A stretch of 64,000 bases of DNA from an uncultured delta proteobacterium (GTDB lineage Bacteria; Myxococcota_A; Polyangia; Polyangiales; Polyangiaceae), in the NCBI GenBank assembly GCA_963763745.1, contig CAVXQJ010000016.1, forward strand, positions 321,029 to 385,028, in the 5' to 3' direction. Shown here piece after piece: positions 5,019 to 64,000 of the stretch. Positions within the stretch are counted from its first letter, which is position 1. Each line of letters opens with the position of its first letter. Under the pieces are notes generated by a model. It was not told the DNA's origin. It was given only the letters and a program-made list of their open reading frames with translations, and did no database searches. Position numbers and translations under genes: made by a program.

Positions 5019-5942
5019 CTCAGCGCGAGCATGCGATCGATCGGCACGCGCGCCTTTTCGAGGAGCTCCGGGGACATCTCGATGCGCGGCTGCAAATCGC
5101 GGAGGCAGAGATACACCTTCTCGAGCGTGTTCTTCTTCATGAACGGGCACTCGTTGCACGAGCAGCTCGCCTCGGGCGGCGCGGGGATGAACGTCTTGCC
5201 CGAGCCTTCCGCTTGCTTCTGCATCTGGTGCAAAATCCCCGCTTCCGTCGCGATGATGAATTCCTTCTTCGGGCTCGCGAGCGCGTACTTCAAGATGCCC
5301 GTCGTCGAGCCGATGTAGTCGGCCATCTTCAAGAATCGAGTCTTCGCACTCGGGGTGCGCGAGGATCTCCGCGTCGGGGTGCCGCGTCTTCAGCGCCACG
5401 AGCTTCCGCTCGCTGAACGTTTCGTGCACTATACAACTACCTTGCCAGAGCTTCATGGGGCGATCGAGCTTCTTCTCGAGCCAGTGACCGAGGTTCTTGT
5501 CCGGCGCGAAGAGGATCGTCTTGTCCTTCGGGACGGCGTTCACGATCTTCTCGGCGTTCGATGACGTGCAGATGTAGTCCGACAGCGCTTTCACCTCGGC
5601 AGAGCAGTTGATGTACGTGATCGACACGGCGCCCGGGTTGCGCTCGCGCCACGCGCGAAAGCGTTCCGCGGGGCAACCGTCGGCGAGCGAGCAGCCCGCG
5701 TCGAGATCGGGCACGACGACGATCTTGTCGGGGTTCAAGATCTTCGCCGTCTCGGCCATGAAGTGAACGCCCGCGAAACAGATGACGTCGGCGTTCGTCT
5801 TCTTCGCGGCCTGCGCGAGCTGGAGCGAGTCGCCGATCACGTCGGCGACGTCTTGGATGTCGCTCTCTTGGTAGTAGTGCGCGAGGATGACGGCGTTGCG
5901 CTCCTTCTTGAGGCGGCGAATCTCGGCTTCCAAGTCGACCAT
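5015..5942 (-). pseudogene. nadA: Quinolinate synthase NadA, interrupted by a +1 frameshift near 5335
   Basis: The N-terminal 200 aa are in ORF 4662..5942: [60 protein letters not shown]. The C-terminal 105 aa are in ORF 5015..5332: [14 protein letters not shown]...[17 protein letters not shown]. One extra base at ...cttGaagatggcc... shifts the frame. Confidence 0.8.
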
Positions 5943-5982: not shown

Positions 5983-6516
5983 TCAATAGTTGGCGCAGGC
6001 AGGCGCGTCGAATGCGCCCTTCACCGACCCATGCGCAAAGACGAGGTCGAGCGTTCCGCGGATCGACGTCGCGCTGATCGCTTCGATCGTGACGGTCCCA
6101 CGCGTGGCGCTCTCGACGAGCGCGCCCTTCGGGCCGTAGAAATTGGCTTCGACCGACATCGGGCTCATGGCGCGCGTGAGCTCGTACGTGCCGGGCGCGA
6201 TCGCACCCGACATGCGCGTGAACGCGAGCTTCACGGTTGGCCCCGATGGTGACTTCACATTTGCGCACGCATCGACGAACGTCGCGATCGTCAGGCCCGC
6301 GAACACGATCATTCCGTGCTTGTAAGACGAGATCGCGTCTTTGCTTTCAAACGCCGCGCCGGCGACCGTTCCGCTGACCGTGCGCGTGACGGGGGCGATC
6401 GATGCGACGGGCGTCGCCGACGAGGACGCGCTCGCCGCCACCGTCGTGGTGGCCGTCGGGCTCGGCTTTCCACACGCGAGCAGGCACGCGCAAGCGACGA
6501 CCGACGACCTCGTCAT
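5983..6516 (-). CDS. Lipoprotein of unknown function
   Basis: The internal Met of ORF 5983..7017 gives MTRSSVVACACLLAC-G, a lipobox, followed by about 160 aa of protein-like sequence. Upstream in that ORF is Arg-rich junk. The ATG at 6516 overlaps the PilZ stop. Confidence 0.6.
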   Translation of the reverse strand: MTRSSVVACACLLACGKPSPTATTTVAASASSSATPVASIAPVTRTVSGTVAGAAFESKDAISSYKHGMIVFAGLTIATFVDACANVKSPSGPTVKLAFTRMSGAIAPGTYELTRAMSPMSVEANFYGPKGALVESATRGTVTIEAISATSIRGTLDLVFAHGSVKGAFDAPACANY

Positions 6517-21914: not shown

Positions 21915-22812
21915 ATGCAGTCGGTTGCGTCCGCCCGAAGAGTCGCGTCCCCACGCGTTTTGGCGCGCGACGTGCTCGCGCTCGCGAAGCCGCGCATCAC
22001 GTCGATGGTGCTTCTCACGGCGGCCGGCGGCCTGTGGCTGGCACCGGGTCACGCGTCGCGCACGGCGACCGTGTGCGCGCTCCTCGGCACCGCGCTCATC
22101 GTGAGCGGCGCGAACGCGCTCAACATGTTCATCGAGCGCGACATCGACGGCTTCATGAAGCGCACGAAGGATCGCCCGCTCCCGGCGGGTCGCATGCCCG
22201 CGCGCTTCGCGCTCGTGTTCGGCGTCGCGCTGTCGGTGCTCGCGGTTCCGATCCTCGCGCTCGGCGTCAACGCGCTCGACGGCGCTCCTCGCGGTCCTCG
22301 CGAACCTTCTCTACGTGCTCGCGTACACGCCGCTCAAGCAGCGCTCGCACTGGGCGCTTCAGGTCGGCGCGGTGCCCGGCGCGATCCCTCCGCTCCTCGG
22401 TTGGACGGCAGCGACGGGACGCGTCGACGCGGCGGGCTCGTCCTCTTCGCGATCCTGTTTTTCTGGCAGATCGCCGCATTTTCACGCGATCGCGCTCTTC
22501 CGAAAGCTCGAGTACGGACGCGCGGGCCTCGTCGTTCTTCCGAATGTCGAAGGAGACGAATCCGCGCGTCACAGCATCGTGCGCCACGCGAGCGCGCTCG
22601 CCGCGGTGAGCCTGCTCCTCTATCCGCTGCACGTCGCGCACGGGATTTACGTCGCGTCCGCGCTCGCGCTCGGCGCTTCGTTCATCGCCGTCTCGCTCCT
22701 CGGCATTCGCAAAACGGTCAGCCCGCGCTGGTCGCGCCGCGTCTTCGGAGCCTCGCTCGTGTATCTCGTAGGTCTCTTCGCAGCGATCGCCGCCGACGCG
22801 ATTTGCTCATGA
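21915..22812 (+). pseudogene. ctaB: Protoheme IX farnesyltransferase (heme O synthase), with three frame changes
   Basis: The protein is split across ORFs 21915..(frame 0) and 22315..22812 (frame 1). Recognisable pieces are [90 protein letters not shown](PHF)HAIALFRKLEY. The frame changes are a +1 event near 22280 (ctcGacggcg), a -1 event near 22440 (gggg to ggg) and a +1 event near 22478 (atcGccgcat). Confidence 0.8.
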
Positions 22813-23268: not shown

Positions 23269-23843
23269 CTAGTGCACTGACGGTCCGAGGATCACGCCGA
23301 GCCGCAATCCCGCCGTGAAACGCACGACGTCCCACTCGAGCGCCGTGCTCTTCGCGATGAGCTGAAGCGGATAAAAATCCGGACCGAATTCGACGCCGGC
23401 CAAGAAGCGCTGCCAAAAACGAAACGAGACGATGGCCGAGAGCGAGACCATCCCGAGCCACTGCGTCTGCGTGCTCCCGGCGGTCTCGGTGAACACGGTG
23501 ACGCTCTCGAGCGCGGCGGCGCCGCCGATCCAAACGTGCTCCTTCGCGAGCGCCGATCCGATCGCGAGACCAAAACCGCCCCGCACCGAATCGATCGTCG
23601 CACCCGCATCGCCCGGCCCGAGCGACCAGCCGAGCCGCACGAAAGGCTGAAGAGCTCGTCCACGAGCCATACCGCGGCCATCGCGTACACGCCGAAGTCG
23701 CCGTCCAGCGGATCGCGCAGCCCGAACGAGTTTCTCCCGCCCGCGCCAACCCAACCGCGAAGCGGCCCATCATCGTCGGCGCGAGCGCTCGCGGAGACGA
23801 GAATCGAGGCGAAGACGATCATCCGCGCGGCGCGCACAACCAT
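23269..23843 (-). pseudogene. Small outer-membrane beta-barrel-like protein, frameshifted near 23650
   Basis: The signal peptide (MIVFASILVSASARA) and N-terminal strands are in ORF 23292..23975. The remainder (PFVRLGWSLGPGDAG...RFTAGLRLGVILGPSVH) is in ORF 23269..23754. The junction between the two frames sits at ELFSL/QPFVRLGW. Confidence 0.45.
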
Positions 23844-47140: not shown

Positions 47141-48157
47141 GAGCGAACCGCCGAAGCCGATCTCGAGCCCGCCCGGGATCGGAAATGCGAGCGGGGAGAT
47201 CGAGACGTCGGAGGGGCGCGGCACGCGCGGCGCGCCATCTTTCGGAAGCCACGCGGTCGCGATGAACGTGGACACGAAGCCGATGCCGCTCCCGATCGCG
47301 ATCGCAGCGAAGGAGTCGGGCGCCTTGCAGTGATCGATGCACGCGAGACCGGGGATCACCGCGCCGCCGATCCAACCGAGGTCGATCAAATGCACGCGGA
47401 GCGTGCTCGGCGAGAGCCACGTCGCGGTCGCGATGCCGCCGGCCGTGCCCGCGATCCCCGCGAGCGCCGCCGTGATGCCTACGTTGCGATTGCCTTCGGG
47501 GTCGAAGGCTGGCGTTGGATATCCAGCGGGTCGCGATGCGGCGCCCGCGAGGCTCCCCGCGAACAAACCGCCGAAGAGCCCGGTCGTCGCGACCCACGAT
47601 GCGCGCCCCGGCGTCGTCTTCACGAAGCGCGTGAGAACGAGCCCCGTCGCGAGCCCGACGGCCGGACCGGCGAAGATCCACGCGATGTCCTTTCGATACG
47701 TGTGAAACGACGACGTCGCGCGGTTCGCGAAGTACTCGTTCCACGCGATGGCTTCGCCGAGCCCGAGGAGCATGCTCGTCGATACGATCGTCGGAGCGCC
47801 GCGCTCGTAGTGGTTCACGTGATCGATGAGGGGGACGAGTGCCGCGCCGAGAGGCGCGGTGAGCAGCGTGGCGAGCTCCGCGCCGATCGCCGCGCGCGCG
47901 AACGGGCTCGGCTGCGACATCCCGTCGATGAAGAGCGGCACGGAGCCTGCCCATTCGATCATCGTGAGGTAGAGAAGAACGAGCTCGCCGGGCTCGCGCC
48001 GGTTTGGATCGTGTGGGCGTCGCGGCTTTTTGACGTTCGTCTCGTCGAGCGTCGGTGTGTCGTCGTCGACGGCGACGTCTGCGAGCGCGCTGCGTGGCGC
48101 GATCAGCGCGAGCGCGATCGCCGCCGCACCAGCGACGCAAGCGCGATGAGCATGAGC
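47138..48157 (-). CDS. Integral membrane protein of unknown function (start uncertain)
   Basis: ORF 47138..48250 has several hydrophobic helices. Its 5' end overlaps the DUF2330 gene, so the true start is probably internal. Confidence 0.4.
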   Translation of the reverse strand, partial: AHAHRACVAGAAAIALALIAPRSALADVAVDDDTPTLDETNVKKPRRPHDPNRREPGELVLLYLTMIEWAGSVPLFIDGMSQPSPFARAAIGAELATLLTAPLGAALVPLIDHVNHYERGAPTIVSTSMLLGLGEAIAWNEYFANRATSSFHTYRKDIAWIFAGPAVGLATGLVLTRFVKTTPGRASWVATTGLFGGLFAGSLAGAASRPAGYPTPAFDPEGNRNVGITAALAGIAGTAGGIATATWLSPSTLRVHLIDLGWIGGAVIPGLACIDHCKAPDSFAAIAIGSGIGFVSTFIATAWLPKDGAPRVPRPSDVSISPLAFPIPGGLEIGFGGSL

Positions 48158-49635
48158 GACGTCGAGATCACGTTTCGATTTTCGCCGGCCGTCTCGCATC
48201 CACATCCATCTTTCGGCGGCGGGGAAGCAGTCGCCGGCGCGTTGGGACAAGGGTCGTAGCTCGGATCACTGTACGCGCTCGTCTGGATCGTGGTCGAGAG
48301 GGTCGATTGGTCGCCGCTCGCTTTGAGCTTCAAGTCGACCGCGAGCGCGTTCGCGGGGAGCGTCGTACGGAGGCGCGTCACGCGAATGTCGTAGGCATTC
48401 ATCGATTGCGTGGCGACGTCATAGTCGGTGAAGTACATGCACGCGGGTACGTAGTCGACGCACGTCGATGCGTCCGGTGCGCTGCCGTCGGCGATGCCGC
48501 CGTCGCTCGTCGTCGTCGTCGTGTCGTCGCTCGCGTCCGACGCATCGTCGCTCGCGTCGTCGCCGGCCTCCGCGGTCGCATCATCCATCGCGTCGTCCGT
48601 CGCGTCGTCGGGTGCATCCGTCGCCGCGTCGGGCGTGCCGCCGTCGTCGGGGCACGCGACGGGAACTTGCGGCGCCTTCAAGCACGCTGCTTGGTAGAGG
48701 CTCCCGAGATTGCCCACGGGCACGGACGATTCCGTCACCCAGCCGACGCCAGCCGTGACGGTGGTGTCGAACAGCTCCGAGTAGTTCGAGCGCTGAGCGG
48801 CGCCGTCCCAGACGACCTTCGAGCGATCGACGAGCAGCGCGGGAAAGCTCGAGGACTCGTAGCGACCTTCGCCGATGACGTAGAGCGTGAGCCCGACGGA
48901 CTGACCGATCCCGGCGGCGACCATGCGAAGCGGGAGCGTCGGGTCCGCGCCGGGCGTCGTCACGCGAACGGGTTGCATCGCGTTGACGCCCTCGTTCGGC
49001 GCGAGCTTCAGCGCGATGAAGTCGAAGCCTTCGTTCGTGTACGCGTCGAGCACGGGCTGGATCGACGTGGGAATGTCGAACCCGTTGTCGGTGAGCCAGG
49101 TCGAGATCGCTTCGCCGCTCGACGATCGAATCGTGACGGCGACGTATGGACCGACGACCTCTTGGGAGATCACGGTGACGCCGTTGCCGCCGTCGAAGTT
49201 GGCGCTCGCGTCGGCGTAGTTTCCGCCGCTGTACGAAACGGAGCTGTCGGATGCGCCGCAGCCGAACCCGCCCCCGCCACCGCCGCCATTGAATGCGCCG
49301 CAGCGCGACGGAAGCGGCGGCGAGTAGACAGCAGGGCTACTCGTGATGTCGAGCGCTTGAAGCCACTCGTCGCGCGCCAGATCGATCGTCGCGCCTTGTC
49401 CAACCGGGAGGACCCAGGCGAATTCGCTCGGGTTGCCCGTGTAACGAATCTGATCCCAGAGCACCGTTTGCGACGTCGAGATCGAAAACGCCATGCGGTG
49501 GTCGGTGACGACGCTCGTCGTCTGGTTCTGCCCCGGCGGCGGATGAAAACAACCTCCGCACGCGTGAGCGGGCGGCGCGTAAGTCACGATGGCCGCGAGA
49601 CCGAAGAGCGAAGAAAGAAGGAGTTGACGATTCAT
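48103..49635 (-). CDS. DUF2330-like secreted protein with a MYXO-CTERM tail (paralog 3), carrying an acidic Asp/Ala/Thr-rich insert
   Basis: AHACGGCF after the signal peptide. It shares the blocks of paralogs 1 and 2. It ends GCGCETAGEN...LMLIALASLVRRRSRSR. Confidence 0.7.
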   Translation of the reverse strand: MNRQLLLSSLFGLAAIVTYAPPAHACGGCFHPPPGQNQTTSVVTDHRMAFSISTSQTVLWDQIRYTGNPSEFAWVLPVGQGATIDLARDEWLQALDITSSPAVYSPPLPSRCGAFNGGGGGGGFGCGASDSSVSYSGGNYADASANFDGGNGVTVISQEVVGPYVAVTIRSSSGEAISTWLTDNGFDIPTSIQPVLDAYTNEGFDFIALKLAPNEGVNAMQPVRVTTPGADPTLPLRMVAAGIGQSVGLTLYVIGEGRYESSSFPALLVDRSKVVWDGAAQRSNYSELFDTTVTAGVGWVTESSVPVGNLGSLYQAACLKAPQVPVACPDDGGTPDAATDAPDDATDDAMDDATAEAGDDASDDASDASDDTTTTTSDGGIADGSAPDASTCVDYVPACMYFTDYDVATQSMNAYDIRVTRLRTTLPANALAVDLKLKASGDQSTLSTTIQTSAYSDPSYDPCPNAPATASPPPKDGCGCETAGENRNVISTSLMLIALASLVRRRSRSR

Positions 49636-49755: not shown

Positions 49756-50043
49756 TCAGCGAACGTGCTCGACCGACGTTCGTGGAGGCGCCGACTGGAT
49801 CGGGGGCGCCGAATTTTTTCCGTGCTCGATTATCTCGTACCCCGAAAGCGCGAGCACGAGCGCGCCGGCGATGACGAGGAGCGCGATCTGCGCGCGGCTC
49901 GGCTCGGTGCGTGAGCGGAGCTCGCGCGCTTTCTTCTTCACGTCATCGGACGCGTCGCTCTTTTCGATCTCGGTCACGCCGTCGCGCACGGCGCGGTAGT
50001 TCCCCGCTTCGAACGCTTTCTCGAGCGCGTCGAGATCCGTCAT
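49756..50043 (-). CDS. Small membrane protein (95 aa)
   Basis: MTDLDALEKAFEAGNYRAV...QIALLVIAGALVLALSGY (one TM helix). The ATG overlaps the stop of the upstream degraded gene. Confidence 0.4.
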   Translation of the reverse strand: MTDLDALEKAFEAGNYRAVRDGVTEIEKSDASDDVKKKARELRSRTEPSRAQIALLVIAGALVLALSGYEIIEHGKNSAPPIQSAPPRTSVEHVR

Positions 50044-51537
50044 GTCGCGATCGCGATGCCGAGCTGCTTGCGCAATTTCGCGTAGCGGTCGCTCGACACG
50101 AAGACGAGGAGATCGTCCATGCGCTCTTGCGTCTTCGTCTTGTCGTCGAGATCGAAGACGCGATTGCGCGGCGCGAAGATCGTTGGCGAGGAGGAGCCCC
50201 GCGCGGCACACCGTGCGATCGACGCCGCTCGCCCAGCGCTGCAAGTTCGTGCGCCCGCCTTCTTCGACGAAGCGCAGGAAGTGTCCGCGGAGCTGATCGA
50301 TCGCGAGCGGCTCGAGGATCGGCTCGATGGCCTTCGCGATCGGGACGACGATTTGTTTTCCGCGATCGTTCATCGGCATGCCGGGATTTCCGATCGAGAG
50401 CGCCGCGAGGAAAATGTCCTCGAGATCGGCGATGCCCGGAATGAGCGCGCGCATGAACTCCTGCGCGCGGTGATGCGCGAGGTGTTTGCCCGCGATGAAC
50501 GCGAGCTCCGCGGCGCTGCGGCCCGAGAGCGACTTGCCGCCGATCCGCGTCGCGGGCGGCATCGCCGGGGACGAGCTCGGCGGTGCCGTCGAAATCGGGA
50601 TCGACGAAGAGCGCCGGCGCGTGCATACCGAGGATCGCCGCGGCCCACGCGAAGCAGCGCACCGCTTGGATCGTCGAGGTCGCGGGGTCTTGGCGCTTCG
50701 TTGCGTCGAGCTTCGGCAGCGAGCTTGTCGCGTCGCAATGCGGAGACGCGACCGAGCAGAACGGCCGGCGCGACGACGGCGAAGATTTCGCCGACGAGCG
50801 GCTCTTCGTCCGGATGAAGGAGCAAGCGCGACCACGCGTCGGCCGTGAGCGCGGCCTTGGGCTTGATGAGCGCGGTCTCGCGAAACTGCGTTGAAGTGCG
50901 CGCGCTCGTCGGGCGACGCCTGATTCAGGATACACGAGCGCTTGCGCGACGCACCACTTGCCGTCGGCTTCGTTCTTCTTGTCGTACACGCGATAGAGCG
51001 AGTGAAGCGCCGCCTCGTCGCGCGGATCGTGTCGCAAGCGTCGTTGGAGCTCGATGGGATCGTCGTCGGGAACTTCCTTCGCGGTCACGCCCGAGAGATC
51101 GACCTCGACCGAGACGTTCGCGCGCGCCTCTTCGAGCTGCCGCTCGAGCTCGCGCGACGCGCGCCTCGAGGAGTGCACGCGACTTTTGCAGCGCGAGCGT
51201 TTGCTGATCGGTCGCGGGCCGACCGGCTGGAGCGAGGCGCGCGGCGCCTCTTGATCCTCCGCGCTCTCGTAGAGCTCCTTGATGATGACTTGATGCCGCG
51301 CCTCGTACGCCGACTGGAGCGCTTGCTCGAGCGTGCGCAGGCGCGCTTTGTCGAGGCCGAGCGAGTCGGCCATCTTGTCGAGCTTTTGCACGCTCTTCTT
51401 GCGTGATGATCCCGTCCTCGATCACCTCCGCGAAGAGCTCCTCGTACATCATCTCGAGCTTGCCGAGCCGCACGTTGCGCGGCGACCTCGCCGGGCTCGA
51501 ACGAAACTCTGTGCTCGAAATCGTCGTGTTCGCTCAT
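50040..51537 (-). pseudogene. Hypothetical protein gene broken by at least 6 frame changes (pseudogene or low-quality consensus)
   Basis: Protein-like segments alternate between all three minus-strand frames. In order they are MSEHDDFEHRVSFEPGEV, RLGKLEMMYEELFAEVIEDGIITQEERAK, QKLDKMADSLGLDKARLRTLEQALQSAYEARHQVIIKELYE, HDPRDEAALHSLYRVYDKKNEADGKWCVAQALVY, LLHPDEEPLVGEIFAVVAPAVLLGR, RCFAWAAAILGMHAPALFVDPDFDG, ELAFIAGKHLAHHRAQEFMRALIPGIADLEDIFLAALSIGNPGMPMNDRGKQIVVPIAKAIEPILEPL, and RVFDLDDKTKTQERMDDLLVFVSSDRYAKLRKQLGIAIAT. Confidence 0.45.
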
Positions 51538-51609
51538 GGTTTGGGAGCCTACTTGGTGGCACGGTCAAATTCACCTGCGCGTTACATTCGGCGAGTAGCT
51601 TGAATCGAA

Positions 51610-52301
51610 ATGGCACGCATTCTCGTGATCGAAGACGAACGCGATTTGCAGCAGGTGGTCGCGTACAACTTGCGACAAGCAGGTCACGACGTGGCGACGG
51701 CGTCGGGTGGGCAAGAGGGGCTGCGGCTCGCGCGTGAGGAGCCGCCGGATCTGGTGCTCCTCGATTTGATGCTGCCGGACATTCCGGGCACCGAGGTCTG
51801 TCGCGCGCTCAAGCGCGAGCCGGCGACGCAGGGCGCCGCGGTCGTGATGGTGACGGCGAAGGGCGAGGAGATCGATCGCGTCGTCGGGTTCGAGCTCGGC
51901 GCGGACGACTACGTCGTCAAGCCGTTCAGCGTGCGCGAGCTTCTCCTTCGCGTGCAAGCGATCCTGCGGCGCAGCTGGAGCGAGCAGCCCGTCGCGCCGA
52001 CGTTCGAGTTCGGTTGCCTGCGCGTCGATCGCGAGGCGCACCGCGTGTGGGTGGACGGGCAAGGAGGTCGAGCTCACCGCGCTCGAGTTCAAGCTCCTCG
52101 ACGACGCTCCACGATCGCCGCAACCGCGTGCAGACGCGCGGCGCGCTCCTCAGCGACGTGTGGGGCATCGACGCCGACATCACGACGCGCACCGTCGACA
52201 CGCACGTGAAGCGCCTGCGCGAGAAGCTCGGCGCCGCCGGCGAGTACATCGAGACGGTGCGCGGCGTCGGCTACCGATTCGCCGACGCGCCACCGAAGTG
52301 A
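51610..52301 (+). pseudogene. OmpR-family response regulator with two +1 frame changes in the winged-helix region
   Basis: The receiver domain is intact (VIEDERDL...[11 protein letters not shown]...VMVTAKGEE). The C-terminus is split over three frames (VWVDG / [13 protein letters not shown] / [22 protein letters not shown]...[14 protein letters not shown]...VRGVGYRF). The insertions are at gacgGgcaag and ctcGacgacg. Confidence 0.75.
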
Positions 52302-52323
52302 CGAGGCGTGCTACGACGGATTG

Positions 52324-52895
52324 ATGCGGGTCGCGGTATTGTTTGGCATGCGTCGCGTGCTCGAATGGGATCGCACCCAAGCCCGACGCGTCCGCTGACG
52401 CCACGCCGAGCGACGTCGTCGTCGGCGACGGAAATCCGTGCACAATACAACCAACTGCGACGATCCAAGGCACGTTCCTCGGCGCGACGCTCAAGCCGAA
52501 AGACGCGATTGCGCTCGTCACGCAGACGTCGGAATACGAAGTGATCGTGGCGGTGACGGATTACGCGGGCCGATGCCCGTACGGAAACGACACGAAGGCG
52601 AGCTCGAACGTGCTCGCGATCGTCTACCAACTGGACGACGCCGCTGTTGCAGCCCACGACCTTCGACCTCCAGCAGACGAAGCTCCGTGTTCGCGGAGTA
52701 CACGCAGTTCGACGGCGTATGCGGCACCTCCGCAACCGAGTCCGCGAGCTTCGGCGAACAGTGACGTACGACACCATCGACGCGTGCGGCATCACCGGGA
52801 AGTTCGATCTCACGTTCAACGCGGATCATGTGACGGGAACGTTCTCCGCACCGATCTGCAGACAACCCGCCCGATGGAGGCGCGGGGTCGTGTAA
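52324..52895 (+). pseudogene. Small secreted protein gene with several frame changes
   Basis: MRVAVLFG..CVACSNGIAPKPDAS...EYEVIVAVTDYAGRCPYGNDTKASSNVLAIVYQLDDAAV / PTTFDLQQTKL / FAEYTQFDGVCGTSATESASFGEQ / TVTYDTIDACGITGKFDLTFNADHVTGTFSAPIC are spread across three frames. Confidence 0.3.
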
Positions 52896-52906
52896 ATGAA
52901 CAAGCG

Positions 52907-54362
52907 ATGAGCGACGACGCAGACGAGCGGGCACAGCAGCGCGTCGGGAGCATGCTCAACGACAAATGGACGCTCGAACGGCTCTCGGCATCGGCGGGAT
53001 GGCGGCCGTGTACGCGGGCGTGCATCGCAACGGCGCGCGCGCCGCGGTCAAGGTGCTGCACCTGTCGCTCGCGCGGCGCACGGAGCTCCGCGAGCGGTTC
53101 TTTCGCGAAGGTTACGCCGCGAATCGCGTGGACCACTCGGGCGTCGTGAAGGTGCTCGACGACGACATCATCGAGGGCGGACCCGACGAGGGCGGCGCGT
53201 TCCTCGTGATGGAGCTCCTCGAGGGCGAGTCCGTCGAGGATCGCATGGAGCGCGGGCCGCCGATCGACGAGCGCGAGCTCCTGCGCGATCACCGCGGCCG
53301 TGCTCGACGTGCTCGCCGCCGCGCACAAGGCAGGCGTCGTCCATCGCGACTTGAAGCCGGAGAATATGTTCCTCGCGCGCGACCCGGAGAAGCCCACCGC
53401 GCCGCCGAAGATCAAGATCCTCGATTTCGGTCTGGCGCGCGTCGCCGAGGCCGGCAAACAAGACGATGGCCGGCATCGCGATCGGCACGCCGTCGTACAT
53501 GCCGCCGGAGCAAGCGGCGGGTCGCGTCTTCGAGATCGACGCGCGCTCGGATTTGTTCGCGCTCGGCGCGTCGTGCTTTCGCATTCTCGCGGGTCGCACG
53601 GTGCACCCCGCGGAGAGCGCGCTGGCGATCTGCTCGCTCATGGCGAAAGATCCAGCGCCGAAGCTCCTCACGCGTGGCGCCGAACGTGTCGCCGAAGACC
53701 GCGGCGATGGTCGATCACGCGCTCGAGTTCAAGCGCGAGGATCGTTTCCCGACGCGACCGCAATGCGCAAGGCGGTCGACGAGGCCATCGCGGATCTCGG
53801 CGGCGACACGATCGAGATCGACAGCGGCATGTACGAGGTCGAGCCGCCGCCTCCGCCGCCACCATCACCACCGCCTCCGCCTCCGCCGCCCGCGAGAGAA
53901 GAGAAACAGGAAGATCAGGAAGATCAGGAAGAAGTCGAGGTCGAGAAGAAGAAGGGTGGGGGGCTCGGGTGGGTGTTCGTGCTGCTGCTTTTGGTGGGCG
54001 GTGGCGTGGCGGCGAAGATTGCGTGGGATCGGCTTCAGCCGACGGCGCCTTTGGGCGTCGTCGATGCGGCGGGATCGGCGACGAACGTCGTCGTGGTCGA
54101 TGCGACGGTGCAAGCAGCCGTCGAAGACGTGCACGCGGAGGAAGTGCGCGAGGCGGCAAGCGAGGATGCTCCGGTCGAGGCGTCCACGGATGCAAACGTC
54201 GAAGACGGCGCGATCGACGCCACGGCGGACGTTTCCATCGACGCACCGGTCGACGCGGAAACCCTCGATGCACGAAGCACATCGATAAGTGCGCCCGACG
54301 CGGGACACCACCGCCGCGACGGCGGCGTCCACCACAACGTGCACCACGGCCACCACCACTGA
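52907..54362 (+). pseudogene. Hanks-type Ser/Thr protein kinase broken by about 5 frame changes
   Basis: The pieces are MSDDADERAQQRVGSMLNDKWTLERL (frame 2), LGIGGMAAVYAGVHRNGARAAVKVL...[14 protein letters not shown] (frame 1), [24 protein letters not shown]...[10 protein letters not shown] (frame 2), [17 protein letters not shown]...[13 protein letters not shown] (frame 0), and then a poly-Pro, TM and acidic C-terminus (frame 0). Confidence 0.7.
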
Positions 54363-56138
54363 TTGGGTTTCCAGGCGCAGCGTGTGTACAATGTGGTCGT
54401 GCAAGCGAACGCCCCGCAACCCGCGGGCGCGACCTCTCGAACCTTCGAGCGTGTCGCGGTCGTCAGAACGCTCGCGAATCGAAAGGTTCCGTCTGCGATC
54501 GTCCACGCGTTTGCGCCCACGGGCGCCGAGGTCGTCGTCGTCGAACGCCACGGGCAAGTCGACGGGGCGCTCGGGACGAGCGACCTCGACGCCATCGAAG
54601 CCGCCGCGCGCGCCGCGATGACGCTGCGTCACCCGAACGTCGCGAGCGTGCGCGACGTGTGGCGCGAGAGCGGCGAGGTGTGCGTCGCGAGCGAGTTCGT
54701 GGAAGGCGAGACGCTCGAAGAGCTTCGCCGGCTCGGGACGGGTGGCAAGGAGCTCACGCTCGAAGTCGGCGTGCGCGTCGTCGTCAATCTCCTCGCCGCG
54801 CTCAGCGCGCTTCACACGCTCGGCGCGGGGACGCTCGCGCACGGCGAGATCACCGCGAGCAACGTCATCGTCGGATTCGACGGGCTGACGCGCCTCGTGC
54901 GACCTTATCGCGGGCGCGTCGCCGGAAAAGTCGCCGAGGCCGATTGGTTTTCGTACGCCGCACCCGAAGTGATCCGCGGCGGACCCGCGTCGGTGCACGC
55001 GGATTTGTACGCGGTCGGCGTGATTCTCTGGGAGACGCTCTCGCGTCGAAAGCTTTTTCCGAAGGCCACGCGCGAGGGCCGCGCCGCGCGCAGCTTGCCC
55101 GTGGGCAAACCGTCGCCGCCGGCCGACGCGAATTGGGCCGCGCCGCTCGCGGCCGTCGCGGAGCGCGCGCTCGCGAACAATCCCGCCGCGCGTTACACGT
55201 CGGCCGCGGAGATGGCGGCTGCCGTGCGGCTCGCCGTGCGATCGAAACTGGCGATGCCACCGCGCGTCGCGGCCGCCGTGGACAAGCTCGCGGGCGAGCG
55301 CATCATCGCGCGCCGCAACACCAACGCGCTCCCCGAGGCGCTCTCGTCGCGCACGTCGGGGAGGCCGTCGCGCCCATCCGTTCCACCCGAAGCCGTGCGC
55401 GCGCTCTCCGCCATGCGACCGTCATCGCGTCCGCCAACGCCGGGCACGCCGTTCGTCGTCCCCGCGATGCCGAAGGCGGCGCCCGTTCCAACCGCGTTCG
55501 CCGCAACGCCGCCACCCGCGCCCACTGCGCCGGTGAAGCCGCGTCCGCCCGTGCCGCCGATCAAGATCGCCGATCCGACGCCGAAGCCGCCACCGGTCGC
55601 CGTCGCGCCTCCACCTCCCGTGATCGAAGAAGCGCCAATCTCGATCGATCCGTCGTTCATGAGTGAGGGCGTAGAGTCCGCGCCCGAGCCCGCGGTTGCG
55701 GCGGCTGCGCCCGTCGCGCCGCCGATCGCGCCGATCCAAGCTCCACCGACGCATGCGCCGGTCGTCGCGGAGCCGGAGGCGTTTGCTGCTGCCGGCGTTC
55801 CCCCGACGAACAAACGCGTTCCGATCATTGCGGGCGCCGCGTTGCTGCTCCTCATCGTGGCGTTCGTGATCGTGCGCGTGGCGACGAGCGGCACGAGCAC
55901 GAGCACCGCGCCATCGGCGAAGGCGTCGAGTGCACATCCGTCGTCGACGGCTCTAGCGACGAACACCGTGACCGCGCCGATGCCGTCACCGACCGAGACC
56001 GTGCCGCCACCACCGAGCGCGTCGGCGAGCGCAGAGCCCGAAACGTCAGCCGCGCCCGACAACACCGCGCCGATCCCCGACACCTCACATCGGCCGCACA
56101 CGAGACCGAGACCCACGTACGATCCCATGGGCATTTGA
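54363..56138 (+). CDS. Degenerate kinase-like protein (pseudokinase) with a Pro-rich linker and a TM helix. The start codon is uncertain (TTG at 54363 or GTG at 54399).
   Basis: It has a kinase-like fold ([43 protein letters not shown]). The HRD catalytic loop is replaced by [13 protein letters not shown] and DFG is replaced by GFDG. The intact frame runs for 1.78 kb. Confidence 0.6.
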
Positions 56139-57684: not shown

Positions 57685-58480
57685 TGCGAGGCCTTGAGCC
57701 AGCCGATTTCGCGCGCGGTCACGGGACCGATGGCGAGCTCGTCGAGCCTGTCGAGGACCTGCTCGTCATTCGGCGAAATCGGGCGGCCGCGTGTCATGAT
57801 CTCGACGAAGCGCTGCGGATAGCGCGGCGAGAGCTCGGGCTCGGCGAGCCCGTCGGGGATTTTCGCGCGGCCGAGCTCGTCGTATTTGTCGGTCGCGTCG
57901 AGCGTGTGGAGGAGCTCGTGCGCGATCACCGCGAGCGAGAAGTCGACGGTCCCCCCGTCGAGATCGACCGTGACCATGCCGATGCGACCGCCTTGCTCGC
58001 TCGAGCCCTCGATCATGTGCTTCTTGCTCGTCGGCCGGACGCACGGTCACGTAGATGCGCGCGTCGTAGCCGCCCGCCGTGACGTGCGCGCGATCGTCGA
58101 TGTCGCTCGTCCACTTGCGAAGGTTCCACGCGTGCGATGCGAGCGCGACGATGCCATCGCCGAGCGACGGGCTCGGGCGATGCGAGCGCGACCGGCCCAA
58201 ACACGGTGAACGAAAACGGAGCGGGCGCGTTCGGCGTGAAGCGGTGAAGCTCGCTCTCGAGTCGCGCCGCGAGCGCGGGGCTGCGGTCGCGCAGCGCATC
58301 GATCGATGCGTCGTCGACCGCGCCGCTCTTCAGCACGACGACGGCGACAGACAACGTGTGGTCCCACGTCTTTCGCGCGTTCCGCGACGCGCTGTCGTGC
58401 AGCGCATATGCGACGACGACGACCAAGATCGCGAGGAGCGCGATCACGCGCACGTAGAAGTAGCGAGATCTCCGAACCAC
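57681..58480 (-). pseudogene. Membrane-anchored putative zinc-metallopeptidase-like protein (HExxH) with at least 2 frame changes
   Basis: The N-terminal TM and soluble parts are in ORF 58013..58480 (MVRRSRYFYVRVIALLAILVVVVAYAL...). The middle is in ORF 57766..58299 (HAWNLRKWTSDIDDRAHVTAGGYDARIYVTVRP). The C-terminal part in ORF 57681..58016 has AVIAHELLHTLDATDKYDELG. Confidence 0.4.
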
Positions 58481-61857: not shown

Positions 61858-63300
61858 TCAGAACCGTTCGTTCATCATCGATTGGTCGGTGGCCGGTTGT
61901 GCGGGCTTCGCGCCGTGCGTCGTCGTCGGCTTCGTGGTCGTCGTCGTGGTTTGGGGCTTCGCGGACGCAATCGTCGCGGTCGCGGGTTGCGCGGATGCGG
62001 TTGGCGGTGCCGTCATCGTCGCGGGCGGCGCCGCGCTGACGATCGGTGGCGGCGGCGGCTCGACGGGCTTGGGATCGTTTGTGACGATTTGCGTCGGCGG
62101 AGTCGGGGCGGCAGAGCGCTGCTTGAAGAAGAAGAACCCGCCCGTCGCGAGCCCGACGACGAGCGTCGTGGCAAAGACGCCGATCGCCACGCCCAGGTTG
62201 CTGCCCGACTTCGGCGGAACCGTGCCGCCCGCGACGAGCGGGCGCGACGTCGTGAGTCGCGCGTCGAGCGGGTCGAGCGGAAGCGTCACCGCCTTGTTCA
62301 TCACGGGGGCGGTGTCCGGCGAGAAGGTCATCGCGAGCGGTGACGACGCCGGAGACCCGAAATGCGACGATGCGAGCGGCGACGTCGCGCGCATGGAGTC
62401 GCCCGCGCGCTTGAGCGCGACCTGCATCGAGCGCGCGTCGGGCCAGCGCTGCTCGCGATCGAACGCGAGCGCGCGATCGACGACGCGACGACCGCGACGC
62501 GGGACGATCGGCGCGAGCGTCGCGAGCGACGGCGCGGCTCGGGTCGTCGCCGAGCAAGAGCTCTTCGTCTGACCGTGTCCGCCTTGCGTGAGCCGCTCGC
62601 GCCGGCAGAGCAGCGTGAACATGCGTCGCGCCGACGGCCCAGATGTCGCGTGCGCGCGTCGACCTCGTCCCACGCCCGCGCGCCTGCTCGGGCGGCATGA
62701 ACGCGGGCGTGCCGATCGCGTGCCCGTCTGCGTCGCGCGTCGATCCGCGCGAGCCGCAGCTCGCGCAGGCGCGCGATGCCGAAGTCGAGCACCTTCACCG
62801 CGCCGTCGCGCGTGAGGAAGATGTTCTCCGGCTTGATGTCGCGGTGGACGATGCCCTTGCGCGTGCGCGGCGGCGAGCACGTCGAGGAGCTTGTCGGCGA
62901 TGCGAGAGCGCCTCGCTCGAGCGGGCAGGCGCCGTCGCGCGGTCTGCCGCAGCGTCGTTCGAGCGTCTCGCCCTCGAGCAGCTCCATCACGAGGAACGCG
63001 GTCGCCGTCGTCGGCGCACGTCGTCGTCGAGCACGGGCACCGCGCCCGGGTGCTCGACCTTGTTCGCGACGTAGCCCTCGCGCAGGAAGCGCTCGCGCAC
63101 CTCGTCGACTCGAGCGCGAGCTCGCGCGTGGAGGATCTTGATCGCGCGCGCCGCTTGCCGTTGCGGTGCGTCGCCGCGTAGACCGCGGCCATGCCGCCGA
63201 CGCCGAGCAGCGCTTCGAGCCGCCACTTGCCCTTCAGCACCATGCCCACGCGCGTGCGGGCCCGATCTTGGAGCGTGCGGAGATGACTCACCGAACGCAA
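61858..63300 (-). pseudogene. Hanks-type Ser/Thr protein kinase broken by at least 6 frame changes
   Basis: The kinase motifs are scattered over three frames: GVGGMAAVYAATHRNGKR, AIKILHA...[64 protein letters not shown]...VKVLDFGIARL, MPPEQARG...DIWAVGAT, MFTLL, and then an intact Pro/Thr-rich TM tail ending NERF. Confidence 0.7.
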
Positions 63301-63321
63301 ATCATAGCACTCCCCCGCGCT

Positions 63322-64000
63322 TTACGGGCGCTCGAGTAGGCCTGCCGCGCCCATGCCACCGCCGATGCACATCGTCACGATCGCGCGCTTTTGTTTGCGG
63401 CGCCGGAGCTCGTGCGTGGCCGTCGCGACGAGCTTCGCGCCGGTGCAGCCGAGCGGGTGACCGAGCGCGATCGCGCCGCCGTTCACGTTGAGCTTCTCCG
63501 CGGGGATGCCCAATTCGCGTGCACAATACACGGATTGGCTCGCGAAGGCCTCGTTCATCTCGATGAGGTCGATGTCGGCGATCGTGAGGCCCGTTTGCGC
63601 GAGGAGCTTCTTCACCGCCGGCAGCGGCCCGATGCCCATGATCGCGGGATCGACGCCCACGGTCGCGAACGCGCGGAACGTGGCGAGCGGCTCGAGGCCG
63701 AGCGCTTTGGCTTTCTCTTCGCTCATGACGAGCGCGGCAGCGGCGCCGTCCGAGAGCGGCGACGCGTTGCCCGCGGTGACCGTCCCGGTTTGCGCGAACA
63801 CGGGCTTCAGCGCGGCGAGGCCCTCTTTCGTCGTGTCGGGACGAACGAGCTCGTCGCGCGTGAAATGGAAATCGACGTGCTTGTCGCCGTCGAACTTCAC
63901 GGCCTTCACGGGGACGATCTCTTCGTCGAACTTGCGGCTCTCGATCGCGGCGGACGCTTTCTTCTGGCTCGCGAGCGCGAAGTCGTCTTGCTGCTCGCGC
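63322..64000 (-). CDS. Acetyl-CoA C-acetyltransferase (thiolase), C-terminal part. The N-terminus lies beyond the window end.
   Basis: [18 protein letters not shown] and [12 protein letters not shown] are the thiolase C-terminal active-site motifs. The frame stays open to position 64000. Confidence 0.85.

Follow-up and report, generated by a model that had tools for sequence, protein, structure and literature searches.

Within a window of 64,000 nucleotides from an uncultured delta proteobacterium, four consecutive genes are each broken over several reading frames, which raises the question whether the genes have decayed in the organism or whether the recorded sequence is at fault. The original prediction had assigned about 17 frame changes to a block from 49756 to 54362 and had named a hypothetical protein, an OmpR-family regulator, a small secreted protein and a Ser/Thr kinase as the broken genes. 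The genes of this block are the following:

49756..50043, minus strand: small membrane-protein gene (95 aa), a complete ORF downstream of the hypothetical gene and outside the damage
50040..51537, minus strand: conserved protein of ~495 aa, function unassigned; nine frame events
51610..52301, plus strand: response regulator of the PhoB/OmpR family; two one-base insertions
52324..52895, plus strand: lipoprotein gene with the lipobox LACVAC; about four events
52907..54362, plus strand: Hanks-type Ser/Thr kinase; a TM segment lies at the C-terminus and the tail is of low complexity; five events

Frame changes were located with two independent methods, namely a codon-usage HMM which makes no use of homology, and a frameshift-aware protein-to-DNA alignment combined with a MAFFT nucleotide alignment against the syntenic relatives L003, L012 and L013. 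The positions obtained in both ways agreed. In a first pass the HMM missed closely spaced shifts and called a further kinase gene of the window, the third, "non-coding"; the breaks in this gene were revealed only by homology. Twenty minimal edits between 50161 and 53746 (16 one-base insertions, three one-base deletions and one ambiguous site; nine, two, four and five events in the hypothetical, regulator, lipoprotein and kinase genes, respectively) were sufficient to restore four complete ORFs with zero internal stops. The frame breakage was recovered by both methods, whereas the number of events is 20 instead of about 17. The damage is also shorter than predicted, as the stretch from 49756 to 50043 is a separate intact gene and the kinase carries no shift past 53746. 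The events are:

50161: one-base insertion of C, private to the window (MAFFT against L003, L012 and L013; HMM switch 50182)
50565: one-base insertion, C to CC (MAFFT; HMM switch 50545)
50720: one-base insertion of C between G and G (MAFFT; HMM switch 50720)
50889: one-base insertion, aactg[C]gttgaag, with identical flanks in L012 (MAFFT; HMM switch 50890)
50931: one-base insertion of T between A and A (MAFFT; HMM switch 50930)
51152: one-base insertion of G between C and C (frameshift-aware alignment and MAFFT)
51215..51216: ambiguous, 2-nt insertion or 1-nt deletion in a divergent stretch; either correction restores the ORF
51389: one-base insertion of C between G and A (MAFFT; HMM switch 51399)
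51477: one-base insertion of G before CGCGG (frameshift-aware alignment and MAFFT)
52057: one-base insertion of G, giving GGG (MAFFT; HMM switch 52055)
52101: one-base insertion, ctcg[A]cgacg; L003 matches the 5' flank and the eight bases that follow the insertion (MAFFT; HMM switch 52104)
52340..52350: probable one-base insertion in the lipoprotein signal peptide, position approximate (three-frame reading; correction restores MRVAV..LACVACS)
52652: one-base insertion, within ~10 nt (frameshift-aware alignment to the paralogue in the window; HMM switch 52629)
52671: one-base insertion, within ~10 nt (paralogue alignment; HMM switch 52685)
52750: one-base deletion, within ~10 nt (paralogue alignment; correction restores the ORF)
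52984: one-base deletion, G or A in the relatives (three-frame reading and MAFFT)
53283: one-base insertion of G before CGCGAT (MAFFT; HMM switch 53284)
53455: one-base insertion of C before AAAC (MAFFT; HMM switch 53457)
53671: one-base insertion of C between A and G (MAFFT; HMM switch 53672)
53746: one-base deletion, T4 to T3, the sole classical homopolymer event (MAFFT; HMM switch 53743)

Removal of eight single bases and resolution of site 51215 converted the hypothetical gene into a stop-free ORF of 495 aa. Its product has more than 1200 full-length relatives, the best of which is 92% identical; for this family no match was found in Pfam and NCBIfam, a PDB profile search returned coiled-coil noise only, and the AlphaFold model is all-alpha and of low confidence (pLDDT 57). 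For the response regulator the removal of 52057 and 52101 gave a 229-aa ORF with 94-95% amino acid identity to L003 and L012, three removals and one pad gave a stop-free ORF of 189 aa for the lipoprotein, and three removals and two pads an ORF of 485 aa for the kinase. Pfam domains were only partial in the raw ORFs, whereas the corrected proteins matched Response_reg (1-110 of 111), Trans_reg_C (1-77 of 77) and Pkinase (4-257 of 263) end to end. The lipoprotein gene is a paralogue of the gene at 5983-6513 on the minus strand and is missing between regulator and kinase in the relatives, where only ~18-20 nt separate the two. The small membrane-protein gene is read in a single frame and is 65-74% identical to intact orthologues in L012 and L013. 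No structured RNA was detected in the block by comparison with Rfam.

Whether such damage may have arisen in the organism was judged from related genomes, as the original prediction had proposed. The related Polyangia genomes L003, L012 and L013 carry the same cluster with full-length genes, and the three broken genes with orthologues are 85-95% identical at the protein level to the intact copies. None of the three relatives shares any of the clean indels, which comprise 13 one-base insertions and two one-base deletions. Within the genes of the hypothetical protein and the regulator, 11 private frame-breaking indels in the window are opposed to 0, 0 and 1 in the relatives.

The most serious competitor of an artefact is a genuine and very recent pseudogenisation, in which the signalling island together with nadA, ctaB and other genes was inactivated and accumulated real frameshifts. 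The frames are indeed disrupted relative to intact orthologues, and several indels per gene beside intact neighbors resemble real pseudogenes, for which a mean of ~4.6 indels each has been described (PMC6054270). The substitutions, in contrast, do not bear the marks of decay. Not a single nonsense codon was present in ~1400 corrected codons (~1200 of them from the three genes that have orthologues), and of 138 residues invariant in the family 137 were kept. Private substitutions in the hypothetical and regulator genes amount to 40 synonymous and 20 non-synonymous changes in the window and to 34 and 19 in the intact L013, so that an excess of non-synonymous or nonsense changes indicative of relaxed selection on the window's branch was not found for these two genes. 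The only "stop" in the codon alignment is a misaligned start codon.

Natural indel rates lie about 10-fold below substitution rates (PMC6054270). At ~1 indel per 10 substitutions, the 11 indels in the hypothetical and regulator genes would imply ~100 neutral substitutions, but the non-synonymous excess over L013 is ~1. The indel spectrum is equally foreign to decay: all resolved events are 1 nt in size with an insertion to deletion ratio of 16:3, whereas natural pseudogene indels show a ratio of 0.76 and power-law sizes (PMC6054270), and the probability of at least 16 insertions among 20 events is 9e-4. Bacterial pseudogenes under neutral decay, for example those of the leaf-nodule symbionts Ca. 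Burkholderia, offer a natural parallel, with several frame-disrupting indels per gene beside intact neighbors. Such pseudogenes are, however, deletion-biased and contain many direct-repeat insertions as well as non-synonymous and nonsense substitutions (PMC6054270), none of which is seen here. Finally, under pseudogenisation a large genome of the free-living type would have lost the function of ~16% of its genes within the window, among them nadA and ctaB, which are conserved and of the housekeeping type. We therefore regard it as unlikely.

The damage is strongly concentrated: of roughly 30 events known at that point of the analysis, ~20 fall within 3.6 kb of the 64-kb window (P ~1e-18). Damage is not confined to the block, contrary to what had been assumed; at least five or six patches exist, of which the block is the largest. 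Further patches are:

5325..5345, minus strand: +1 frame break in nadA; the frame changes between NadA Pfam positions 2-199 and 201-295 (HMM switch 5334)
22282..22478, plus strand: the gene of heme-O synthase (ctaB/cyoE, UbiA family) switches frame about three times; UbiA positions 1-90 are not in the frame of positions 94-247 (HMM switches 22282, 22437 and 22478)
57693..58480, minus strand: two insertions near 58024 and 58165 in the gene of an HExxH protein; the intact 262-aa orthologue from L013 matches frames -1, -2 and -3
62400..63276, minus strand: at least 10 frame changes in the kinase domain of the third Ser/Thr kinase; two guide proteins agree on the breaks within the catalytic domain

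In the third kinase at least 10 shifts fall within 850 nt, which makes this patch denser than the block itself. Another patch is located at about 23700. Altogether about nine of the roughly 55 genes in the window are broken, while ~15 kb of other homology-checked genes were clean and the long genes of 3-4 kb are read in a single frame by the HMM, as had been stated before.

The sequence context of the events was inspected as well. It had been supposed that homopolymer events pointed to a flow-based or similar chemistry. This cue did not hold: the inserted base equals a neighboring base in only two of the 13 cleanly mapped insertions, compared with an expectation of 34%, and homopolymers of 5 nt or more are absent from the block, where homopolymers are in general less frequent than elsewhere in the window. 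With most events outside homopolymers, a homopolymer or flow-chemistry cause was rejected. This argues against nanopore, HiFi, 454 and Ion Torrent errors specifically, not against an artefact in general. Among the 13 insertion sites no motif was apparent beyond a weak and unconvincing enrichment of CG dinucleotides beside the inserted base (9 of 13 versus 36% background, P = 0.015, uncorrected for multiple tests).

Insertion bias, patchiness and this slight CG preference would also be compatible with a real, localized and indel-specific mutagenesis, in which repeated error-prone repair of breaks, for instance, or the untemplated addition of nucleotides gives rise to bursts of +1 changes. The CG enrichment is too weak to carry much weight, however, and the patches strike unrelated genes on both strands. 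Moreover, we know of no bacterial process that would place ~20 independent +1 insertions outside repeats within 3.6 kb and leave no substitutions or larger lesions. Mutagenesis of this kind appears very improbable, and the same holds for the general proposition that the extra bases are real and that a Polyangia bacterium underwent a burst of non-repeat +1 insertions in kilobase patches with no accompanying substitutions. If this were true, it would point to mutagenesis or repair by insertion only, of a kind not described so far, or to a novel manner of expressing such genes.

Programmed recoding by ribosomal frameshifting or transcriptional slippage, as well as phase variation, would agree with frame changes inside genes whose fragments are fully coding in character in each successive frame. 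In such systems each gene has a single slippery or repeat site, which is conserved among the orthologues. Here ~20 unrelated sites without a common motif would be needed, slippery or homopolymeric tracts are absent, no indel lies in a long homopolymer or simple repeat (only that at 53746 is found in a short run), the old frame remains open for 150-2200 nt beyond most sites and therefore offers no stop-codon pause, and the orthologues are unshifted at all these positions, so that this explanation is effectively refuted.

The evidence consequently favors patchy consensus or polishing errors as the cause of the broken genes, to which we assign, from sequence comparison, a probability of about 0.9. 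The preference for a locally poor consensus over ancient decay in the original prediction is in line with the intact relatives, the lack of decay signs, the unnatural indel spectrum and the similarly broken nadA and ctaB. The gene cluster is composed on one strand of the ~495-aa hypothetical gene and the small membrane-protein gene and on the other strand of the PhoB/OmpR response regulator, the lipoprotein, the Ser/Thr kinase and a kinase-like gene. Under a consensus-error origin, the record would contain ~20 single-base consensus errors, mostly a spurious extra base, in the 3.6-kb patch from 50161 to 53746, and errors of this kind would recur in other patches of the window, which are smaller or denser. 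Such errors probably originated in sequencing or assembly, where coverage was low or polishing had failed.

Long-read assemblies with insufficient polishing are known to be marked by gene fragmentation driven by indels (PMC9262707, PMC12007338). The block shares with such assemblies and MAGs, the problem addressed by the IDEEL test, one-base indels that split otherwise intact ORFs, full-length orthologues in relatives, the lack of substitution-level decay and the involvement of housekeeping-type genes, and its patchy severity is as expected if the damage tracks local coverage or polishing. It differs in that published nanopore and HiFi errors are mostly linked to homopolymers and often deletions, whereas 16 of the 19 resolved events are insertions. 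The mostly non-homopolymeric position of the events, unlike that of published nanopore and HiFi consensus errors (PMC12007338, PMC9262707), is an observation which counts against an artefact. PacBio CLR errors are randomly distributed (PMC4678779), and the insertions described here, of which two of 13 duplicate a neighbor, look more like such random single-pass noise. An insertion-dominated profile in random context is more readily explained by single-pass noise of the long-read type than by noise of the homopolymer or flow type. A collapsed repeat or close paralogue within the window was rejected as a cause, as no nucleotide match there exceeds 71%, and so was a GC-driven dropout of coverage, the GC content of the patches being ordinary (0.60-0.73 versus 0.66 for the window). 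Neither GC content nor repeats and paralogues within the window revealed a sequence feature accounting for poor coverage of these patches.

Taken at face value, the block would yield an annotation of four pseudogenes and could be misread as the loss of a signalling module, and the same caution applies to nadA, ctaB, the HExxH protein gene and the third kinase. Since the block and the other patches look erroneous, inferences on gene content, pseudogene counts and metabolism from this assembly need caution. For comparative work the frame-corrected sequences are ready to use. The frame breakage of the block is of low biological interest and almost certainly reflects a locally poor consensus rather than gene decay. 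The evidence speaks for genes that are whole in the organism and for a record in need of polishing; the block is a real and conserved gene cluster which is almost certainly functional.

The source bacterium is a Labilithrix-like member of the Polyangia, and the nearest genomes available for comparison are MAGs. Its DNA in the window is GC-rich (62-73%), and since long spurious ORFs occur in every frame at such a GC content, ORF lists by themselves are uninformative. In a GC3 frame plot the coding phase hops repeatedly from about 49.9 to 54.3 kb. A codon-usage HMM, trained on the long genes of the window itself, divided the flagged block into segments of 49-811 nt, compared with 0.4-3.7 kb for most of the remaining window, and nearly all of the block's segments have no terminal stop codon of their own, which is a frameshift signature. 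The genes concerned are the following:

5983-6513, minus strand: gene for a 176-aa lipoprotein at about 6 kb, paralogue of the gene at 52302-52900 (plus strand)
48103-49635, minus strand: DUF2330 gene, intact, flanking the block
50040-51537, minus strand: gene for a hypothetical protein of about 495 aa, from a large family in Polyangia/Myxococcota MAGs with 138 invariant residues
51610-52301, plus strand: PhoB/OmpR response regulator
52302-52900, plus strand: lipoprotein gene between regulator and kinase, in the window genome only
52907-54362, plus strand: Hanks-type Ser/Thr kinase
54363-56138, plus strand: kinase-like gene, intact, directly downstream of the kinase

Frame changes were counted by frameshift-aware protein-to-DNA alignment against the proteins of L003, a syntenic locus of a related genome, and amounted to nine in the hypothetical gene (minus strand), two in the OmpR-type regulator and five in the Ser/Thr kinase. 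Alignment of the lipoprotein gene to its paralogue within the window, with which it shares 47% identity over the C-terminal 34 aa, gave three robust frame events and a probable fourth in the signal peptide. Break points from HMM and homology coincide within about 20 nt. After twenty minimal edits (16 one-base removals, three one-base pads and an ambiguous site at 51215), the four genes read through without an internal stop as full ORFs of 495, 229, 189 and 485 aa. Compared with L003, the corrected hypothetical protein is 85% and the regulator 94% identical, while the kinase reaches 67% overall with a catalytic domain conserved to a similar degree as these two; none of the three contains an in-frame stop. 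Pfam domains are only partial in the raw ORFs, whereas they are close to full length in the corrected proteins (Response_reg 1-110/111, Trans_reg_C 1-77/77, Pkinase 4-257/263). The original prediction of a frame-broken four-gene block is thus confirmed, but of its extent, 49756-54362, only 50161-53746 is damaged, and 49756-50043 holds a separate small gene which is intact. The flanking DUF2330 gene carries a weak MYXO-CTERM sorting signal; its protein is at most 57% identical to those of available genomes (best L003; Labilithrix luteola 43%), and the gene evolves much faster than the block genes (85-94%).

Comparison with close relatives, proposed as a check on the prediction, agreed with it. 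L012 and L013, loci of two further Polyangia genomes, carry the same divergent cluster with all genes intact: the hypothetical gene (494-497 aa), the small gene, the regulator (229 aa), the kinase (460-476 aa) and the kinase-like gene (580-592 aa). In MAFFT alignments with L003, L012 and L013, 13 isolated one-base insertions and two one-base deletions were private to the window, often flanked by otherwise identical sequence, e.g., aactg[C]gttgaag and ctcg[A]cgacg. Private indels that break the frame number 11 in the hypothetical and regulator genes of the window, and 0, 0 and 1 in those of the relatives. In the alignments, L003 (MAG MFD01872.bin.1.328) also has a few indels of its own with lengths not divisible by three, one in the hypothetical gene and six in the low-complexity C-terminal tail of the kinase, which may be alignment noise or consensus errors of L003.

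Genuine recent pseudogenisation, which would appear as stops or substitution-level decay, is very unlikely. The sole "stop" in the codon alignment is a misaligned ATG. Substitutions private to the window lie mostly at third codon positions, as in intact relatives, and their synonymous/non-synonymous counts (hypothetical gene 27/17, regulator 13/3) match those of L013 (21/15 and 13/4). Of the 138 residues invariant in 59 relatives, 137 are present in the corrected hypothetical protein, intact relatives having a mean of 0.5 and a maximum of four private changes at these residues. In natural bacterial pseudogenes indels are deletion-biased (insertion:deletion 0.76) with sizes following a power law, about half of the insertions form direct repeats, and indels arise at about a tenth of the substitution rate (PMC6054270). 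In contrast, the block shows a ratio of 16:3 (P = 9e-4 for at least 16 of 20 insertions), all resolved events are of 1 nt, and the inserted base equals a neighbouring base at only two of 13 insertions, whereas 34% would be expected. With eleven natural indels, about 100 neutral substitutions would be expected; the observed non-synonymous excess over L013 is about one. Recent pseudogenisation would therefore need an indel-only, insertion-biased spectrum of single nucleotides without neutral substitutions.

The flagged block is not the only broken place. In all, frame breaks affect roughly nine of the approximately 55 genes in the window, an implausible share in a living bacterium with a large genome. 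Outside the block, the broken genes include:

about 5334: nadA, Pfam profile positions 2-199 in one frame, 201-295 in another
22282-22478: heme-O synthase ctaB/cyoE (UbiA family), UbiA positions 1-90 in one frame, 94-247 in another
about 23640-23760 (near 23.7 kb): signal-peptide-bearing gene, probably one shift
57693-58480: HExxH gene, two shifts relative to an intact 262-aa orthologue
62400-63276, minus strand: kinase domain of a third Ser/Thr kinase, at least ten shifts in about 850 nt

In the third kinase the breaks are denser than in the flagged block and are masked by a long spurious ORF (61858-63324). About 15 kb of homology-checked genes, including COX1-4, the M3 peptidase, DctP, the DUF2330 gene and the kinase-like gene, are full length in a single frame.

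The absence of stops and substitution decay, the private, insertion-biased 1-nt indels and the similar damage to other genes support the earlier reading of the block as locally poor consensus, to which we assign a probability of about 0.9. A real, localised, insertion-specific mutagenic process, for which we know of no precedent, is a very unlikely alternative; the one observation in its favour is a weak CG-context enrichment at the insertions (P = 0.015). Programmed recoding and phase variation can in effect be discarded, given some 20 mutually unrelated, non-repeat sites, a previous frame that stays open for hundreds of nt past the shift and orthologues none of which is shifted.

As to the kind of consensus error, the homopolymer cue of the original prediction failed: homopolymers are scarcer in the block than in the remaining window and none there reaches 5 nt, and the only run-associated events are at 52057 (GG to GGG), 50565 (C to CC) and 53746 (T4 to T3). 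PacBio CLR errors are dominated by insertions. They have been reported as randomly distributed (PMC4678779). For nanopore and HiFi data, the published consensus errors are linked mainly to homopolymers (PMC9262707, PMC12007338). Residual errors that are mostly insertions and lie in random context are consistent with single-pass noise left without averaging; the sequencing platform behind them we infer. No cause emerged for the location of the patches: they are ordinary in GC, the window contains no close repeat or paralogue, and the block has no match in Rfam.

The frame breaks are not a biological feature, and the value of the block is that of a quality flag for the assembly. Judged from the corrected genes, the cluster would be divergently arranged and conserved in Polyangia, with the 495-aa protein and a small membrane protein on one strand and the PhoB/OmpR regulator, a presumably membrane-anchored Hanks kinase and the kinase-like protein on the other. 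Homologues of the corrected hypothetical protein number more than 1200. Nearly all of the 120 listed are full length (about 490-530 aa), with identities of up to 92%, and no match reaches 97%. Its family has no match in Pfam, NCBIfam or PDB, and an AlphaFold model is all-alpha with low confidence. The three relatives examined all have the gene of this protein in divergent orientation to the regulator, kinase and kinase-like trio, and their regulator-kinase spacer of 18-20 nt contains no lipoprotein gene. The kinase-like protein covers Pkinase profile positions 53-254 only and, read by eye, has HGEITASN in place of HRDLKPEN (HGE for HRD) and no obvious DFG motif; with 65-82% identity in L012 and L013, these features suggest a conserved pseudokinase partner.
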